Virus record (IMG/VR): IMGVR_UViG_3300042863_000830
Coordinates: 3,711 to 67,710 of that record
Origin: a virus
Length of the DNA: 64,000 bases
Direction: 5' to 3' (one strand)
A program made the position numbers and the translations under genes. The notes beneath the pieces are model-generated. The model saw nothing but the letters and a program-made list of their open reading frames with translations, did no database searches and was not told the origin of the DNA. Numbering within the stretch: position 1 is the stretch's first letter; every line of letters begins with the position of its first letter. Of this stretch, positions 5,238-24,625 are shown in pieces.

Positions 5238-7077
5238 AAACATTTATTCCAAGGAGCCTAACTATGTAACTCTAGAATATGGTTTAAACCGCATTAGGGA
5301 GGGCAAGAGTCGCCTATCTGTGTCCGAGATAAGGAATACTATCGATAAAGAAAAATCTGCCAATTTAAAGAAGAATTTGCCCTCTGTGTGTTTTTCTGGA
5401 AAATTTGGTGCAGAAAGGAAGGATTCTGACCTGATTCAGCATAGCGGATACATAGTCTTGGATTTTGACAACATTTTTGAACTAAGAGATCGCCAAACCG
5501 AGATTATCAGCAATAAATTCGTTTACGCTTGTTGGGTTAGCCCTTCAGGTAATGGGTTAAAAGCCTTGATTAAAATTGCAGATGGTAGTAAGCATAGAGA
5601 ACATTTTCAAGCATTGCAGGATATATTCCCCGATATTGACAAAAGTGGGGTTAATCCAAGCAGAGTATGTTACGAAAGCTACGATCCCGATATTTACATA
5701 AACGAAAAAGCTGAGGTTTTTAAAACCATAAAAAAGACCGAAAAAATTGTTATTTATGAAAAAACCGATGATGATGACAAGATTTTTAAGAAACTTTTAA
5801 CATGGTTATCTAACAAGAACGAGGCATTTGTAACCGGAGAAAGAAACAATTTTATTTTTAAATTAGCATCAGCTTGTTGTCGTTATGGTATTGATGAATT
5901 GACAGCTAATTCAATGATTAACAATGAATTTTTAAGTAATTCAGAGTTTACAAAAAGAGAATCAGATAATGCTATTTCATCTGCTTATAGAACAAATAGG
6001 GGTAGGTTTAGCAGTGCATCTTTTGATAAAGAAATTTTAGTTGATAAGACTTCTAAGTTAGAAGTTAAAGTAGAAAATGGTGTTATTGACGAAGATGGAA
6101 GATTGAATGATGTAATCTATGGAATTGATGTAAAAGAGCAAGCACTTGGATTGTATGAGCAAGGTTACGCCGCAGTGAGTGGAATTAACGTAAAAGAAAT
6201 GGACTTTGCTTTCAAGCCAAAAAAGGGAGAGATAACTGTGTTAACCGGTATAGGTAACTACGGAAAATCTTCTTGGAAAAAATGGTATCAGGCAATGCGA
6301 ATTTTGTTATATGGAGAAAAGTTTGCTACCTTCTCACCAGAAGATAATCCACCAGAAGAATACTATCACGATTTTGTAGAAATTTTACTTGGTTGCGATT
6401 GTACTCCTGCAAATCCAAATAGACCTTCAAGACAAATTTACGAATACACATACGACTTTGTTTGTAAGCACATTTTTTATGTTTATCCTAAAAATGTTAC
6501 TCCAACTCCTCAGTATATAATGGAAGTTTTTTTACAATTGATTGTAAAGGAAAATGTTGATGGTGTTGACATTGATCCATTTAATCAATTAGCAAATAAT
6601 TACCAAAACTTTGGTGGTAGAGATAAATATCTTGAATGGGTTTTATCTTTATTTTCTAGATTTTCGCAAACAAATAATGTTTACTTTTGGATAATCGCAC
6701 ATCCGGTTAAAATGCAAAAAGCAACAGATGGGAACTATCCTTGTCCTGATGTTTTTGACATTGCCGATGGTGCATTATGGAATAATAAACTCGATAATAT
6801 TTTAGTTTATCATAGACCATTTGGACAAACAGATCCTCAAAATCCCACTTGCGAATTTCATAGTAAAAAAATTCGTAGACAAAAAATAGTTGGTAAAAAG
6901 GGGTTTTTTGTATTTGAAATGTTATTTAAAACTAGAAGATTCTTTTTTAATGGTTCAGATCCTATGCAAAAACTTTTGAATGAAAAAAATATGACATTTA
7001 AAACCGAATCAGGACAAGAAGCATCGCAAGGGTGGGTGCCTTTTGAAAACGAAAACGGAGAAGAAATAATTTTCTAA
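5221..7077 (+). CDS. primase-helicase (BT4734/VirE_N-like N-terminus, SF4 helicase C-terminus)
   Basis: KKNLPSVCFSG, VLDFD and SPSGNGLK; Walker A GIGNYGKS; IDPFNQ and IIAHP SF4 motifs. Confidence 0.85.
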   Translation: MITIFKNIYSKEPNYVTLEYGLNRIREGKSRLSVSEIRNTIDKEKSANLKKNLPSVCFSGKFGAERKDSDLIQHSGYIVLDFDNIFELRDRQTEIISNKFVYACWVSPSGNGLKALIKIADGSKHREHFQALQDIFPDIDKSGVNPSRVCYESYDPDIYINEKAEVFKTIKKTEKIVIYEKTDDDDKIFKKLLTWLSNKNEAFVTGERNNFIFKLASACCRYGIDELTANSMINNEFLSNSEFTKRESDNAISSAYRTNRGRFSSASFDKEILVDKTSKLEVKVENGVIDEDGRLNDVIYGIDVKEQALGLYEQGYAAVSGINVKEMDFAFKPKKGEITVLTGIGNYGKSSWKKWYQAMRILLYGEKFATFSPEDNPPEEYYHDFVEILLGCDCTPANPNRPSRQIYEYTYDFVCKHIFYVYPKNVTPTPQYIMEVFLQLIVKENVDGVDIDPFNQLANNYQNFGGRDKYLEWVLSLFSRFSQTNNVYFWIIAHPVKMQKATDGNYPCPDVFDIADGALWNNKLDNILVYHRPFGQTDPQNPTCEFHSKKIRRQKIVGKKGFFVFEMLFKTRRFFFNGSDPMQKLLNEKNMTFKTESGQEASQGWVPFENENGEEIIF

Positions 7078-16993: not shown

Positions 16994-19900
16994 ATGGCAG
17001 AAGAAATTTTAAATAACGATCCTTTAGGTATATTGTCAAAACCTAAAAATGATCAAGATCCATTAGGTATCTTAAAAAAAAAAGAATCTACACCTTTAGG
17101 ATCTTCGGTTACACCATTACCATCTCAAGATAAGTTTCAGCAAGGGTTAGCTATGGCTAAAAGCCCAATAGCTTCTGCTGTAAATAAAGATACACAAAAA
17201 GACAATAATTGGTTTGCTGGAATGTATAACAATCTTGTTAAACCTATATCATCCCTTGCAGGAGGAACCGCATATTTGGCAGAAGCTGTGTTGGGGGGTA
17301 GGCCAGAAGCTATGGTTACTCGTCTTGCATCTGCAAGAGAATTTCAAAAATCAACTGAATCTTTTTTTGATAAATTAAGATCTGAAAAATCATCAAAAGA
17401 ATACGAGCAAAAGCAAGCGAAAGAATTTGATGTTACACCTGTGCAGAAGGAAAATCAAATGTCCAGAGAAGATGCACTGACGCTGACAATGATTGATCCG
17501 GAAAAATTAACTCCTATTCAATTAAAAAAATATAATGAAATTTTAGTAAAAAATAAAGGAAAAGAAAAGCCATCTTCAATTTTCAGTGGAGTTGACGCTA
17601 AAGATGTAAAATCAATGGCTTTCCAAACTCCGGGACAATTATTAAGTTTTATAATGGGGGCATACACTGCTGGTACTACATATATACCTCAGTCAATTAG
17701 TGATGCATCAAATGAAATTTATGAAACAGATAAAGGTAATAAATTAAATGATGGCCAAAAAGCGGCTTATATATTTACGCAAGCAGCAGCTCAGTATGCT
17801 TTAGAAAAGGTTTCTTTAGATTTAATATTAAAAAATACAGGATTAGGAAAAGCTGCAAAACAAAAAATTGCCAATGAAATAGTAGATAAATTTGTTGCAA
17901 AAGGTGTTAAGGCAACTGCTGAAGATGTAGAAAAAGAAGCAATACGATTGGCTAGCTCTATGGCGTCTAAAGCAAAAAGAATTGGAATCAAAGCTGCAAC
18001 TGGAGCAGCGGTAGAACCCGGCACAGAGGCATTGCAAACAGGTGCCGCAGAAGGGGTTAAATTATTAACAAATAAAATTTCAAAAACAGATGTTTTTAAT
18101 GAAGAAGATATAATTGCTAATTTAGGTAAAAATATGATTAATTCTGCTGCAATGGCAACCGGCCCCGGAGCTATTGGTGGAGGATTTGTAGGCTCATTTC
18201 AAAATACAAAAAAAGCAATTAGGGAAGAAATCGCAAACGAAAAGGATGTTAATACTATTCAAAGTGAAATAAACAAACAAGTTGAAGAAGGAAATATAAC
18301 TCCAGAAGAAGCGCAAGCTGCAAATATTACAGCAAAACAATATGCAGATATAGCTAGTAAAATACCGTCAACAGTAACTCCTCAAGATAAGTATAAGATT
18401 ATTGGCGGTATTGAACAAAGAGAGGCTTTAAATATAAAAAAACAACAAGCATATGAAGAATTAACTGATTTAGATCCTGTATTTAAAAAAGAAAAGCAAG
18501 ATCAAATTGATTTAATTCAGGCTAAGATAGACGAAACAAATGATTATTTAGAAGGCATTGTAAGTGGTAAAAAACCTGAATATAAAGAGAAAAGAGGAAT
18601 GTACTTTAAAGTAGATTCTGAAGGCAATGAAACGCCTATAAATAAGGAAACCTATGATTTAGCTACGTCTATTCGTGATGAAGATAAAGTAAAAGAAAAG
18701 CAACAGTTTGACCAATTTGTAAATAGAATTGTAGAAGGGGAAAGAATGCAAACTCCTGAAGATTTACAATTCTACGAAAATAACAAGACAGAGATTGAAA
18801 AGGCGTTAAAAACAAAGGCAGAAGAAACAAAACCTGCTGTTGTAATGCCAGAAGAAAACGTAGCTCCTCAAGTAGTAGAGCCAAGCAAAGGCGCTGCCGT
18901 TATCATGCCAGAGGGGAATATTGCAGCAGAAACAACAGTAGTAGGCGCACAACAACAAGGCAAAGCTCCTTCTGTTATAATGCCAGAAGCTAATGTAGCT
19001 CCTGAAGTTGCAGTTAAACCAACTGAAGTAGATAAAAGGCAAAAACAATTAGAAAGGGTTGAAAGGCTTAATCCTGATGCAGGATTCCCATTGTTCAATG
19101 TGGGGCAAGTCCATAATGACGGGAATAGATATATCGTTAGCAATGCAACAGATAACAGAACAAATCGTAACGCAGAAGGCGTTGTAGTTATTTCTAAAAT
19201 TATAGAGCCAGCTCAAGTAGATGAAAATGGCAAAATGACCAAAGCCGCTACCGTTGAAACAACAATTTTTGATTCAAAAGAGGATGCTCAAAAGGCACTA
19301 CAAGATAACTATAATAAATATAAGGCTATTGCCGAAGAAAGATTATCAAAAGCTCAAGCAGAAGTTAAACCAACTGAAGCAAAGCCAGAAGTTAAATCTA
19401 AATTAGAAGCGTTTAAAACTAAGTTTGCTCCACAGCCTAAAGAGGTTTCAATAAGTGGTGCGAAAGGCGCAGAAACTAGAAAAATTAAAGAAGAAGCCGG
19501 GAAGGTAATGCCAAAGGATGCTCGAGGATTTGCTTTGTCTTGGCTAGCCAATAGTGGTGAAAAGATAAGTTCAGATTCAGTAAATAAATTACTTGGATCG
19601 TTTAGGGCATCTCTTAACGTTGGTAAAACAAAAAAAACACAAGAAGCATCAACAAGGGATTATGTTGATAATCAAGGACAAGAAATAGATACAATTGCAG
19701 ATAATATTTGGGATAATTTACCAGAAGGGTTAGAAGATAAAATTTCTAGTTCTCAAATTAGAGATCAATTAGAAATGCTTATTTCTGAATATCCAACTAA
19801 AAAAGCAGCAGCAGCAGCCCTTGTTCAATATGCTGGAGAAGATTTAAGTTTAGATCAACAAAGGGCTAAATATGAAGAAGGTAAGGGAATTGAAGAAATG

Positions 19901-22900
19901 AAAACAATTCCAATAGTTGATTCTAGAGGCGAAATAGAAGGCGGATATCAGGTTCCGGTTTCAGATGATAGAACATTTATTTTTAGTAAAGATTATGAAA
20001 CAGAAGTTAAAACGATTCCAATTGAATTTGAGGGCGGATTTGTTCCATTTGTAGAAGGTGAAGAAGATTTGCCATTTGCAGTAGAAGAACCAACAACAGA
20101 AGAAGTAGCCCAAATGCAAGATATAGTAAAAGACTATATTGATGATGGAACTACGTCTTTAACTGAAATTAAAAAAGCCATTGCTAAAGAACTTGGATAC
20201 AATACCAAGAAACTAAGACAGACAATAGATGATGCTTTTAATAAATACACAGCAACAAAAAAAGCAGCTCCGGCAGAAGTAACAAGCGGTGTTATTGGCA
20301 GAATTGGGAACGCATTGAAAAAGATGTTTGGAAAAGATGCTCAAAAGCCTTTTATAGCAAAAGACTCAAAAGCGTTAGAAGCAAAATTAAATGATATAAA
20401 AGATGATGTGAGATTTCAAATTGAAGCAGGGTTCAGAGGCACAAACGATATGCCAGTTGCATATAGATACGATACAGATAAAGTGGCTAGAGAAAGATTT
20501 GATATACCTAAATTAAAACAAATAGGTGCAGGAAGCGACAGGGTGGTATTTGATCTTGGTGATGGTAAAGTATTAAAAGTTGCAAAAACGCCTAGAGGAT
20601 TAGAGCAAAATATACATGAAGGTGATTATTATTTGTCAGGATCTATTATACCAGAGGTATTTGAAAGAGGATTAAACTATGTTGTAGTTGAAAAGATAGA
20701 GCCACCATTGAAAGCAACTAAAGGTTCTGATAAGTTAAATGACCTTTTAAATAAAATACAAAAGTTCTCTCAAAAAGACTTTGATAACCATGTTCCAGAA
20801 TTGCAAGAAGTAATTGAAGAATACGAGATGTCAGATATATTCAATTACGATTTATTGTGGAATGATTTTAAGGCTAAGCGAAATTGGGGATTAAAAGACG
20901 GGCAGCCATTGCATTTAGATGGAGGTTCATTTGGTGGATTGCAAATGCTAGATAAATTTAAAGGTCAAAAACCATTAAGTGATCCTGAATTTAGAGATAT
21001 CTATAATAAAAGCAAAAAGGCAAAAATTGAAAATAAAGACGTAGATAAGTTTACAAAGTTTATGGCTACGCCTGATGCGGATATACTTGGATTTACTTAC
21101 AAAAACAAAATGTATTTAAATGGAGAAAAATTAAATCCAAATACTCCAATACACGAAGCAGGGCATATATGGGTTGAGTGGACAAAAACAAACGATCCAA
21201 AGATTTATGCAAAAGGTATGCAATTGGTTGAAGGTTCTCCATATTTAGCAAAAGCAAAAGAAAGCAAGTTCTATCAGCAGCAAACAGAAAATATGAATGA
21301 TGCTGAAAAGGCGGAATATTTTAAGAACGAGGCATTGGCTATGGCTATTGGAGATAAAGGTGCGCAATTCGTTGTAGAGTCTAAGAAAGAGTCGTTTAAG
21401 GATTGGTTAAAAGCATTATGGACTAAAATAAAAAGTTTAACAGGATTTAAAGATTTGACAGATCAAGAGTTTCAAGATCTTACATTTGAAGAATTTTCTA
21501 AAATGGCTGTTAAGGAGATTTTAGGGGTAGAGAATGACTTAGACCAGTTCCAAGCTGCAAGATCAATAAAGAAAAAGAAAGAATTTGTAAAAAACAAGAT
21601 AAGGGGAGAAGCTAATAAAAGAGCAATAGATGATTTTGAGATAGATGATATGGTTAAGTTAATCAAAGCAGATTATGATTTACAAACATTTAAAAATATA
21701 AAAGATGCCGTACAAAAGCGAAGCGCAGAGGAGGTACTTCCAAGCCAACCGCGCAAAATTGGAGAAAGAAGGGGTGAACGTAGACGAGTGGAACCAAGAA
21801 TCGAAGGGCAAGCAGTTGCCGGAGAAGGTAAAACAACACAAGCCGAAGATTTTGAGGAAATCTCTGAGGAAATTGAAAATGTAGGTTTAGATAATGAAGA
21901 TGTAGATTATCTTGGTATTACAAATAAAGAATTGAATCAATTAAGAGAATCTTTAGGATTGCCAGAATATACTGGAACAGAGATTGAAACACATGAAATG
22001 TTAAGAGAAATTGCTGCTAAGATGATTAAAAAGAAAGCAAGCATAGAAAATCTGTACAAAAAAATCAGAAATGGTCAGCCTCTTAAAAATTATGAAGTAG
22101 CATTCATGGCTGAATATAGAGCTGCTTTAGATTTGGAATTAAAGAATAATCCTTCAAAAGAATTGCTTGAAAAAGTAAAAGAATTTGTTGACAATTCTCA
22201 AACTGCAGGATCATTATCAGGTAAATCATTGCAAAGTTTTCAAATAGTAAAAAAAATAAACGAAGCTAATACGTTGTCTAATTTCTTGCTTTCAAGGCAA
22301 GAAGATAAGGGTTTCGCATTAACAGATAAAATGATATCTGTAGAAACATCTAAATTTGAAAAAGTTCAAAAAGCAAAAGAAGATCTTGAAATTTCAATAG
22401 AGCAAGATATTGAGAAACAGCTTTCATACGAAGCTAAAAAAGAGCCTAAAAAAACTAAGGAAGAATATGCAAAAGAAAGAAAAGAGGCTTTAGAAGCAGC
22501 AAGAGAAGCCATAAAAAAGGTTAATAGGGGAGATTACGGGTTGTTTGCAGTGCCTACCTTTGGGGTTCCTCAATTATATGCAGCGGCACCACATATTAAT
22601 AAATATGCAAGAAGTTTATTTTCTGAAGGTGTTTCTAAATTAGATGATATTGTAACAGAAATTCAAAAAGAATTTTCAAGTATAATAGATGGTCTTACAA
22701 AAAGAGATGTCATTGATGTTATTGCAGGAAAGTATAATACTCAAAAAAGAACAGAAAACACAATTAATGCTGGTTTAAGATTATTGAAAAGAGAAGCAGA
22801 TTTACTAGGTCAATTAGAACTTGCAAGAAAAGGCGAAGAAGAAGCTAAAACAGAAAAAGAATTAGCTACAAAGAGCAGAAGAATAGTTGAACTTGAAAGA

Positions 22901-24625
22901 AAAATAAAAGAAGTAAGAGAATTAAACAGATCAAAAGAAGTTGCAGAAGAAGGAGTGTCGGAGCAATCTCCGAGCATTGGTAAAGATGATTCTGATAAAA
23001 CTTATAATGAAAAAAGGCAGAAATTTATTAGAAAAAAAATTGCCAAACTTGAAGATGATTTAAAAAATAAAAACTTTGAAAAAGAAGTAGTAGAAAAACC
23101 AAAGTACAAAGAGTCTAAAAAAACTAAAGAATTATATGAAAAATTAATTGATCTTGAAAAGAAAATTACTTTAGAAAGATATAAGGATAGACAATCAAAG
23201 TTAAGTAAATGGGAAAAAGGTTGGGATAAAGCGCAAAGTGTTTTGGGTATTAGAAGAATAATTCAAACATCAATTGATGCTTCTATTTGGTTAAGACAAT
23301 TGTCTAAAATTACCTTTAACCCACTTCATTGGGACGTTGCTTTAAAATTTTTAAATGCTAGTGGCAAATCTGCATTTAGTCAAAAAAATTATGACAGATT
23401 AATGTATAATCTTAATCAGGCTCCTGAATATAAGGATTCTGTTGAAGATGGTATTAGATATAACGATATTAACAAAGAAAATGTAAATGAACTTTTGCCA
23501 AAGAGTTTTATTTTCGAAATTCCTATTTTGAAAGAACCATTGCTTGTATCTCAAAGGTTAGCCGATGCTTCGCTAAACATAGCTAGATATGAGCTTTATA
23601 CGAAATTAACAAAAAATCTTTTAAGCAAGGGTATTACCAGAGAGTCAGATCCAAATGAATATAAAGAAATGGCAAAATATGTCATGAACATGACTGGTAG
23701 TGGTAATATGTTAAAAGTTTTGGAAACAAAATCTGGAGAAAAAGTAGCTTCGTCTGTTTTTTATGGTGCTAGATTAATGGCTTCAAATATAAACATGCTA
23801 AACCCTGTTTATTTTTTAAAAATGCCAAAAGAGGTGCAAAAAATGGCATTTCGAGATTTAGCAGCAAATACGTCTACAATACTTGCATTGGGTTTAGCAG
23901 CAGCAGCAGCAGGAGCTAAGATATCGTTTGATCCGGATGAGCCTGATTTTTTACAGCTTAGGTTTGGTAAAAAAGTATATGATATTACATCTGGTCAAGC
24001 TGCATATATTAGAACTTTTTTAAGATTGGTAGAAGCGGGATATGCAAGGGCAGCAAAAAGTAAATTTGAGGCAAGCGAATCGGCATCATTTGCTTGGAAT
24101 AGCACATTGAGATTTTTTAGAAACAAATTAGCTCCAAATAATTCATATGTTGTTAGCGCAATTGTTGGTAAAAATTCGATTGGTGAAGATTTTGATCCAA
24201 TGGAAATAGTTAAAATATACCCAATGTATGCAGATGATGCATATGAGGCGGCAAAAGAAGATGGTTTTATTTCTTTACTTACTGTATTGTTGCCAAATAT
24301 AGTTGGATTGGGTTATTCTAGTTATTACAGAGAAAGCGCTTTAAAACCTATGGATGAAATAATAATGAGAGCTAAAAACTCTGACGAAATGAATCCTGAA
24401 TCAGTTAAAAAGAATATTACCAAAGATGAATTTAAGCAATTTGTAAAACTTAGAGATTCTTTGATTGAGGAAAAAATGAAAGAATTATATGAAGAAGGTT
24501 ACAATGATACTCCTTTAAAGGAATTGACTAATGAAGAAATTGCAAAAGCTATACTTTTAATAAAGCGTAAAGCAACAAAAGAAGCCAAAAGTGAATTAGA
24601 ATTTGATAATGAAGATGAAGAATAA
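16994..24625 (+). CDS. giant (2543 aa) polyvalent/ejection protein with kinase-like and zincin domains
   Basis: kinase-like IGAGSDRVV..VLKVAK..DFKAKRNWG..LDGG at ~20500-20930; zincin NTPIHEAGH at 21152; helical C-terminal part; position. Confidence 0.7.
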   Translation: MAEEILNNDPLGILSKPKNDQDPLGILKKKESTPLGSSVTPLPSQDKFQQGLAMAKSPIASAVNKDTQKDNNWFAGMYNNLVKPISSLAGGTAYLAEAVLGGRPEAMVTRLASAREFQKSTESFFDKLRSEKSSKEYEQKQAKEFDVTPVQKENQMSREDALTLTMIDPEKLTPIQLKKYNEILVKNKGKEKPSSIFSGVDAKDVKSMAFQTPGQLLSFIMGAYTAGTTYIPQSISDASNEIYETDKGNKLNDGQKAAYIFTQAAAQYALEKVSLDLILKNTGLGKAAKQKIANEIVDKFVAKGVKATAEDVEKEAIRLASSMASKAKRIGIKAATGAAVEPGTEALQTGAAEGVKLLTNKISKTDVFNEEDIIANLGKNMINSAAMATGPGAIGGGFVGSFQNTKKAIREEIANEKDVNTIQSEINKQVEEGNITPEEAQAANITAKQYADIASKIPSTVTPQDKYKIIGGIEQREALNIKKQQAYEELTDLDPVFKKEKQDQIDLIQAKIDETNDYLEGIVSGKKPEYKEKRGMYFKVDSEGNETPINKETYDLATSIRDEDKVKEKQQFDQFVNRIVEGERMQTPEDLQFYENNKTEIEKALKTKAEETKPAVVMPEENVAPQVVEPSKGAAVIMPEGNIAAETTVVGAQQQGKAPSVIMPEANVAPEVAVKPTEVDKRQKQLERVERLNPDAGFPLFNVGQVHNDGNRYIVSNATDNRTNRNAEGVVVISKIIEPAQVDENGKMTKAATVETTIFDSKEDAQKALQDNYNKYKAIAEERLSKAQAEVKPTEAKPEVKSKLEAFKTKFAPQPKEVSISGAKGAETRKIKEEAGKVMPKDARGFALSWLANSGEKISSDSVNKLLGSFRASLNVGKTKKTQEASTRDYVDNQGQEIDTIADNIWDNLPEGLEDKISSSQIRDQLEMLISEYPTKKAAAAALVQYAGEDLSLDQQRAKYEEGKGIEEMKTIPIVDSRGEIEGGYQVPVSDDRTFIFSKDYETEVKTIPIEFEGGFVPFVEGEEDLPFAVEEPTTEEVAQMQDIVKDYIDDGTTSLTEIKKAIAKELGYNTKKLRQTIDDAFNKYTATKKAAPAEVTSGVIGRIGNALKKMFGKDAQKPFIAKDSKALEAKLNDIKDDVRFQIEAGFRGTNDMPVAYRYDTDKVARERFDIPKLKQIGAGSDRVVFDLGDGKVLKVAKTPRGLEQNIHEGDYYLSGSIIPEVFERGLNYVVVEKIEPPLKATKGSDKLNDLLNKIQKFSQKDFDNHVPELQEVIEEYEMSDIFNYDLLWNDFKAKRNWGLKDGQPLHLDGGSFGGLQMLDKFKGQKPLSDPEFRDIYNKSKKAKIENKDVDKFTKFMATPDADILGFTYKNKMYLNGEKLNPNTPIHEAGHIWVEWTKTNDPKIYAKGMQLVEGSPYLAKAKESKFYQQQTENMNDAEKAEYFKNEALAMAIGDKGAQFVVESKKESFKDWLKALWTKIKSLTGFKDLTDQEFQDLTFEEFSKMAVKEILGVENDLDQFQAARSIKKKKEFVKNKIRGEANKRAIDDFEIDDMVKLIKADYDLQTFKNIKDAVQKRSAEEVLPSQPRKIGERRGERRRVEPRIEGQAVAGEGKTTQAEDFEEISEEIENVGLDNEDVDYLGITNKELNQLRESLGLPEYTGTEIETHEMLREIAAKMIKKKASIENLYKKIRNGQPLKNYEVAFMAEYRAALDLELKNNPSKELLEKVKEFVDNSQTAGSLSGKSLQSFQIVKKINEANTLSNFLLSRQEDKGFALTDKMISVETSKFEKVQKAKEDLEISIEQDIEKQLSYEAKKEPKKTKEEYAKERKEALEAAREAIKKVNRGDYGLFAVPTFGVPQLYAAAPHINKYARSLFSEGVSKLDDIVTEIQKEFSSIIDGLTKRDVIDVIAGKYNTQKRTENTINAGLRLLKREADLLGQLELARKGEEEAKTEKELATKSRRIVELERKIKEVRELNRSKEVAEEGVSEQSPSIGKDDSDKTYNEKRQKFIRKKIAKLEDDLKNKNFEKEVVEKPKYKESKKTKELYEKLIDLEKKITLERYKDRQSKLSKWEKGWDKAQSVLGIRRIIQTSIDASIWLRQLSKITFNPLHWDVALKFLNASGKSAFSQKNYDRLMYNLNQAPEYKDSVEDGIRYNDINKENVNELLPKSFIFEIPILKEPLLVSQRLADASLNIARYELYTKLTKNLLSKGITRESDPNEYKEMAKYVMNMTGSGNMLKVLETKSGEKVASSVFYGARLMASNINMLNPVYFLKMPKEVQKMAFRDLAANTSTILALGLAAAAAGAKISFDPDEPDFLQLRFGKKVYDITSGQAAYIRTFLRLVEAGYARAAKSKFEASESASFAWNSTLRFFRNKLAPNNSYVVSAIVGKNSIGEDFDPMEIVKIYPMYADDAYEAAKEDGFISLLTVLLPNIVGLGYSSYYRESALKPMDEIIMRAKNSDEMNPESVKKNITKDEFKQFVKLRDSLIEEKMKELYEEGYNDTPLKELTNEEIAKAILLIKRKATKEAKSELEFDNEDEE
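21705..21884 (+). CDS. overprinted 59-aa basic protein (MPYKSEAQRRYF...) in the +1 frame of the giant gene
   Basis: ATG 21705 to TAG 21884, translated by hand; A-rich leader; local GC rise; resembles small phage MP(F/Y)KSxAQRR proteins. Confidence 0.6.
   Translation: MPYKSEAQRRYFQANRAKLEKEGVNVDEWNQESKGKQLPEKVKQHKPKILRKSLRKLKM

Follow-up and report, generated by a model that had tools for sequence, protein, structure and literature searches.

The window, that is, the whole stretch of 64,000 nucleotides that was analysed, belongs to a phage and encodes a primase/helicase, a virion structural protein, a giant gene, a large terminase, a portal and tail fibres. The giant gene sits between the virion structural gene and the large terminase gene, and a small ORF is nested inside it. 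The features discussed below are the following:

16994 to 24625, + strand: host gene, an ORF of 2543 codons in the virion/packaging module, without a reliable family match
21662 to 21850, + strand: zone in which, across 9 related giant genes, the third positions of the giant frame (synonymous sites) lose most of their variability
21685 to 21704, + strand: A-rich leader (A fraction 0.65) before the nested ATG, a putative translation-initiation region
21705 to 21884, + strand: nested ORF, 59 codons and TAG, in the +1 frame of the giant gene; a member of the MPYKS family
21705 to 21827, + strand: conserved core, codons 1–41, with all family-invariant residues; the dual-coding constraint peaks here
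21828 to 21884, + strand: the small protein's basic tail, rich in Lys and Arg; read in frame 0, the same stretch overlaps the acidic beginning of the conserved module that follows in the giant protein

The original prediction had labelled the giant gene as one for an ejection protein. This label remains unconfirmed: the giant protein has only two Pfam matches, both under the curated cut-off, and no PHROG match. By eye, the protein (16994–24625) reveals an HExxH-type motif (HEAGH), a kinase-like stretch (Gly-rich loop, VLKVAK), N-terminal DPLGIL repeats and a threefold V(I/V)MPE.N(V/I)A repeat.

The inner ORF lies wholly within the outer one, on the same strand and with an offset of +1. It had been proposed as a hidden gene, and it is indeed present with the translation that had been given (59 aa and TAG); the 16 bases 5′ of its ATG match the A-rich leader that had been quoted. 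The claim that the stretch is richer in GC than its flanks also holds, with GC of 0.51 at 21700–21819 vs. 0.25–0.38 in the flanks. In the giant frame (frame 0) the cassette corresponds to a linker rich in Arg, Gly and Glu, at about aa 1571–1631 of the giant protein. The three codons said to be unusual here are rare in the giant frame and enriched within the overlap: CGA makes up 2 of 61 codons there vs. 4 of 2482 elsewhere, CGC 1 of 61 vs. 0 of 2482, and CCG 1 of 61 vs. 7 of 2482. The length of the ORF is not beyond chance, as the +1 frame of the giant gene is also open for 64 and 55 codons, and its +2 frame has one open stretch of 64 codons. What lifts the nested ORF above chance is homology (E 2e-21) together with the comparative evidence, not its length.

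The small protein had been likened to free-standing phage proteins, and many such homologues were found. All 101 candidate proteins of 35–104 aa from a large protein collection matched at E ≤ 0.01, the best at 2.3e-21, with identities of 55–87%. In an alignment of 36 homologues, the residues M1, P2, Y3, K4, S5, F12, E20, V26 and E28 are invariant, and the window copy retains all nine; its membership in the family is given by significant similarity over a core of about 41 residues. A profile search of 1.84 billion representatives returned 1351 clusters at E ≤ 1e-3, 388 of them at E ≤ 1e-10. In all of the best 150 of these 1351 representatives the match starts at residues 1–46, so the module is strictly N-terminal; in the window it begins at the ORF's own ATG. 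About half of the best 150 representatives, by the author's count, are long proteins of 150–1200 aa with the module at the N-terminus. The module thus occurs either alone with a basic tail or ahead of variable extensions, free-standing proteins of about 50–60 aa being common in the family. A Pfam scan of 10 long fused members detected NUDIX in two and DUF6321 in one, which is too little for the assignment of a function. The C-terminal extensions of the fused members L013, L015, L018, L048 and L053 show recurring short conserved modules and Gly/Ala-rich stretches.

Judged by sequence searches, the MPYKS family is unnamed and without a Pfam, PHROG or NCBIfam model. The small protein matches no Pfam family at E ≤ 10 and no PHROG, and its best NCBIfam match reaches only E 0.019, far under the cut-off. 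In a feature search of a protein atlas, the nearest named cluster was a viral one bearing DUF3008 (score 0.86); this is a lead only, and membership in Pfam DUF3008 (PF11450) was rejected as unsupported, the Pfam scan at E ≤ 10 being empty. The family also seems to be absent from deposited phage genomes: among GenBank phages the window DNA at 20500–23000 has no match, tblastn with the window protein gives a single match (E 8, at an intergenic spot of phage C75C1), and tblastn with a second family member gives none. The window ORF is like the other members in its invariant residues and its 55–87% identity; it differs in being nested rather than free-standing, in having an AGY rather than a TCN codon at Ser5, and in its GC-rich third positions.

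Nesting is not peculiar to the window. A total of 357 relatives were confirmed in IMG/VR viral contigs, and the loci of the best 80 of these 357 were fetched. In 37 of the 80, as in the window, the gene is nested in a same-strand ORF, and the small ORF is always in the +1 frame relative to the covering one. This share is inflated, because likeness to a nested query was the measure by which the best 80 of 357 had been chosen. The covering ORFs range from 427 to more than 3300 codons, the shortest being truncated by the ends of the loci, and the nested copies are 46–74 codons long with variable tails and stop positions. In the remaining 43 of the 80 loci the gene either stands alone or, in its own frame, forms the N-terminal end of a longer protein. 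An antisense ORF of 153–212 codons covers the small gene in ten non-nested loci (L021, L030, L031, L034, L039, L040, L041, L051, L059 and L066); these antisense ORFs are probably spurious. No second copy of the gene was found in any locus, in the rest of the window or in the window's assembly bin, which comprises 422 other contigs and 4.2 Mb. Positions 337–63977 of the window make up what is essentially a complete contig of 63,641 bp. Apart from six runs flagged as possible sources, nearly the whole of 20700–22900 (share 0.89–0.97) occurs in 11 DNA runs from 9 studies, ten of them labelled as lake-water or freshwater metagenomes and one as 'metagenome'. For nine of ten nested products, a collection of 15 billion predicted proteins has no identical sequence, which fits the suspicion that such genes systematically go unannotated.

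The pattern of variation reveals which frame selection acts on. In 30 distinct nested core DNAs, the mean column entropy is 0.576, 0.374 and 0.827 at small-frame codon positions 1, 2 and 3, respectively. The small frame varies as coding sequence normally does, and the giant frame shows the opposite pattern. A codon alignment of the window giant gene with 8 relatives gives the same picture from the other side. In the alignable flanks (21053–21650 and 21920–23300) third positions are the most variable frame-0 positions, with entropy mostly of 0.7–1.0, and across roughly 21662–21850 the frame-0 third-position entropy drops to 0.08–0.23. Synonymous variation of the giant frame is thus suppressed exactly across the overlap, as a real nested gene had been expected to require. 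Smaller frame-0 third-position dips are seen in the same alignment at 22334, 23003–23060 and 23231. Isolated pairwise differences were classed by their effect in each frame and compared with what all possible single changes would give. Those that leave the small protein as it is but alter the giant one number 2222 (65%), 3.5 times as many as expected. The opposite class has 258 (7.5%), 0.30 times the expected number, and 947 differences alter both proteins (0.62 times); a stop, in the small or the giant frame, arises from none of them. These pairwise counts are not independent events, because inherited changes are counted repeatedly. From these comparisons of sequence, the inner frame is under purifying selection and both frames are open across relatives, as an embedded pair of the Rz/Rz1 type would require.

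It can be asked whether what is conserved is instead the frame-0 linker peptide or an element of the DNA or RNA itself (a recombination site or an RNA structure, for example), the +1 ORF being incidental. The core DNA of the cassette is conserved between otherwise unrelated giant genes; such an element would explain this, and also the coincidence of the cassette with the module-swap breakpoints described below. Against it, the variability is three-base periodic in the small frame, and the changes silent in frame 0 are precisely those that are depleted. RNAalifold on 21 nested copies found no conserved structure: the consensus fold has −0.04 kcal/mol, 2 invariant pairs and no covariation. The conservation sets in abruptly at the nested ATG. 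Moreover, free-standing versions of the same protein exist elsewhere that use other codons and have stops in the second frame. We consider this explanation highly improbable and retain that of a selected small protein.

The second constraint on the cassette is the absence of stops in frame 0. The frame equivalent to that of the giant gene has no stops in any of 30 distinct nested copies, and it has 1–9 stops in every one of 37 distinct non-nested copies (5–9 in the AT-rich ones). The codon of Tyr3 is instructive: 28 nested copies have TAC there and 2 have TTC, for Phe. None has TAT, which occurs 11 times in the non-nested copies; TAT is avoided in the nested copies because it would create TAA in frame 0. 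Ser5 is encoded by AGY in 30 of 30 nested copies vs. 9 of 37 others. In nested copies, whose loci have a mean GC of 0.37, the small ORF reaches a GC3 of 0.76; in AT-rich free-standing copies its GC3 is only 0.15–0.37. Since frame 0 is kept stop-free, the small frame is forced to G or C at third positions, and the GC island and the rare frame-0 codons both follow from this required stop avoidance. The recurring linker motif of the giant proteins (D/N-A-V/I-Q-K/E ... R-V-E ...) is likewise the forced shadow of invariant small-frame residues. The DAVQKxS-type motif, for which a nested gene had been offered as the explanation, is accounted for in this way as the frame-0 shadow of the invariant MPYKS start.

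The nested start has a leader of the kind expected in this genome. In the 20 nucleotides before the nested ATG (−20 to −1) the A fraction of 0.65 lies in the top 5% among the 159 internal ATGs of the giant gene, the mean being 0.42 for those 159 and 0.53 for real starts. In 26 nested loci the median upper-tail fraction for leader A content is 0.032. The other gene starts of the window have A-rich leaders too, with a Shine–Dalgarno-like sequence visible at only 1 of 35. Initiation on A-rich leaders without a Shine–Dalgarno sequence is a trait of Bacteroidota-type hosts. In the GC-rich locus L072, AAGGAGG lies 6 nt 5′ of the nested ATG, and in L025, the other locus with a low-A, GC-richer leader, GAGGAGGGG lies upstream of it. 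Contigs from RNA libraries (three runs of two studies) contain short pieces of the giant gene, and one of 179 nt covers 21685–21862. Because these are assembled contigs, neither RNA ends nor translation can be shown from them; moreover, carry-over of DNA is possible and conserved sequence favours such fragments, so that neither a separate transcript nor translation can be inferred.

As translation is not shown, the ORF could be an untranslated relic: a once free-standing gene that was swallowed and lost its expression, with family similarity left over. The nested copy of L029 would suit this, as it has lost its ATG-Pro, an in-frame ATG being found 11 codons upstream. However, the +1 frame is open and the start retained in 37 of 38 nested copies, the favourable outcome of a test that had been proposed in advance. 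Decay is also hard to reconcile with 30 distinct nested DNAs that have diverged while keeping every invariant residue, with the 65% of isolated differences that are silent in the small frame, and with an A-rich or Shine–Dalgarno leader that is retained even where the flanks are unrelated. We regard a relic as very unlikely, and a gene that is still expressed remains the preferred reading.

Another possibility is that ribosomes start at the nested ATG and then shift by −1 into frame 0 near the end of the ORF. The product would carry the N-terminal module on the C-terminal part of the giant protein and so mimic the in-frame fusions found elsewhere. The long proteins that account for about half of the best 150 representatives speak for such an arrangement, as does the conservation of the window's downstream module in several nested loci. 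But no slippery heptamer of the form X XXY YYZ was seen by eye near the 3′ end of the window ORF, the tails and stop positions vary among the nested copies, the 21 copies analysed have no conserved RNA structure that could accompany a shift, and short free-standing proteins are common in the family. Both the frameshift and its fused product seem most improbable, and termination at the ORF's own stop is the reading kept here.

No match in structure or sequence points to a function. AlphaFold2 predicts three short helices and a disordered basic tail for the small protein, with a mean pLDDT of 81.6. Foldseek found no match in the PDB and none better than E 0.9 in BFVD; a PDB profile search gave MatP as its best match (E 0.018, insignificant), a wide search with VIA reached no more than Z 2.6, which is also insignificant, and the protein atlas returned only unnamed viral clusters. 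A head-associated role is probable, but it is inferred from gene order in the single PHROG-verified locus, L041: the free-standing gene begins there 10 nt past the portal gene and upstream of putative capsid genes, and the terminase and portal of this locus belong to the same PHROGs as those of the window. One guess, in which we place little confidence, is that the product belongs to the head module and uses its free N-terminal module to bind DNA or a conserved component of the virion.

The cassette also lies where giant genes change their neighbours. Among 30 nested loci, BLASTP sorts the 150 residues before the cassette into 13 clusters and the 200 that follow it into 13 as well, and upstream and downstream clusters combine in mixed fashion. 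The DNA of L035 is like that of L022 (90%) up to position 6179, two bases beyond the end of the nested ORF, and like that of L016 (74%) from 6187 on, for 3.2 kb; this switch of homology marks the 3′ end of the cassette as a breakpoint of module swapping. In L046 and L075, the counterpart of the C-terminal module of the window's giant protein forms a gene of its own further downstream. The covering gene of L050 and L070 has only about 50 codons ahead of the cassette. A gene of 164–171 codons lies between two very large genes in L050 (5348–5842), L070 (5362–5856), L046 (7130–7630) and L075 (7472–7987); of the two large genes, the one with the cassette is the upstream one in L046 and L075, and in L050 and L070 it is the downstream one, which has the cassette at its start.

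How often nesting arose is less clear. A tree of 126 nt of DNA places all 38 nested copies on one side of its starred branch (support 95/83), but this grouping may have been pulled together by shared stop-avoidance codons. On a protein tree built from 42 aa, the nested state requires 10 changes, and in the AU test a single clade was not rejected (p 0.092). We tentatively put forward, as possible but not probable, a reading in which an ancient, widespread small gene was taken up into giant genes for virion proteins and lives on there as a cassette that codes in two frames. This cassette would be the junction where the N- and C-terminal modules of giant genes exchange between phage lineages, perhaps also serving as a site of homologous recombination, and the small protein, for which a free N-terminus is needed, would act with the giant protein in head assembly or DNA delivery.

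To our knowledge, same-strand embedded genes in tailed phages are limited to a few textbook cases. In phage lambda, the spanin gene Rz1 lies wholly inside Rz in the +1 frame. The pair in the window is similar in that a small gene is wholly inside a larger one on the same strand and in the +1 frame of a tailed phage. It differs in belonging to the virion/packaging module and not to the lysis module, in having an embedded gene that is older and widespread, and in an outer frame that is a nearly unconstrained linker. An outer-membrane spanin of the Rz1 type was considered for the small protein and rejected: its 59 residues contain no Cys and hence no lipobox.

In phage phiX174, B is overprinted within A, and E within D. 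As in these pairs, a single stretch of DNA in the window encodes two proteins in different frames, and synonymous variation is suppressed there. In classical cases of overprinting it is the inner frame that is new, whereas here the inner frame has more than 1000 clusters of free-standing or fused relatives and the outer frame is the derived passenger; also, in contrast to the small viruses in which overprinting of the phiX174 type occurs, the phage of the window has dsDNA of about 64 kb and is not size-limited. The term 'overprinted gene' used in the original prediction can accordingly be kept in part. A real nested gene is supported, with its expression not shown; de novo overprinting is rejected, because the inner protein belongs to a family of 1351 representative clusters, many of them free-standing, and because the nested frame is old and constrained and the giant frame its passenger. 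Overprinting is the subject of several reviews (PMC8227390, PMC7017920, PMC8903798), and in the parts of these that were available, as in the accessible portions of the literature on MPYKS, phage overlapping or nested genes and polyvalent proteins, no published description of the gene was found.

On the observed homology, recurrent nesting, selection pattern, stop avoidance and leader bias, 21705–21884 is very probably a real protein-coding gene embedded in a giant virion-module gene, its translation being inferred. The phage would be one of freshwater, and the product a basic protein of 59 aa from a widespread phage family. Most likely, ribosomes initiate internally on the mRNA of the giant gene at the nested ATG, presumably by means of an A-rich leader like those of the phage's other starts, or of a Shine–Dalgarno sequence in the GC-rich relatives. 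For the giant protein, the DNA of the cassette would encode in frame 0 a hydrophilic linker whose sequence is almost free, selection being directed at the small frame and at the absence of stops in frame 0. On this reading the small gene is the older partner, engulfed by the giant one.

The nested gene recurs in dozens of uncultured phage lineages and is largely missed by standard gene callers, so it is worth looking for in annotation pipelines and in analyses of giant and polyvalent phage proteins. It explains a recurring linker motif and a GC island in giant phage proteins, and the cassette marks the junction of large-module swaps. The embedding in the giant gene would couple the synthesis of the small protein to that of the giant one, and the pair lends itself to clean tests of internal initiation and dual coding. 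In general, the usual story of overprinting is reversed here: the hidden frame is old and constrained, and the annotated giant frame reads through it.
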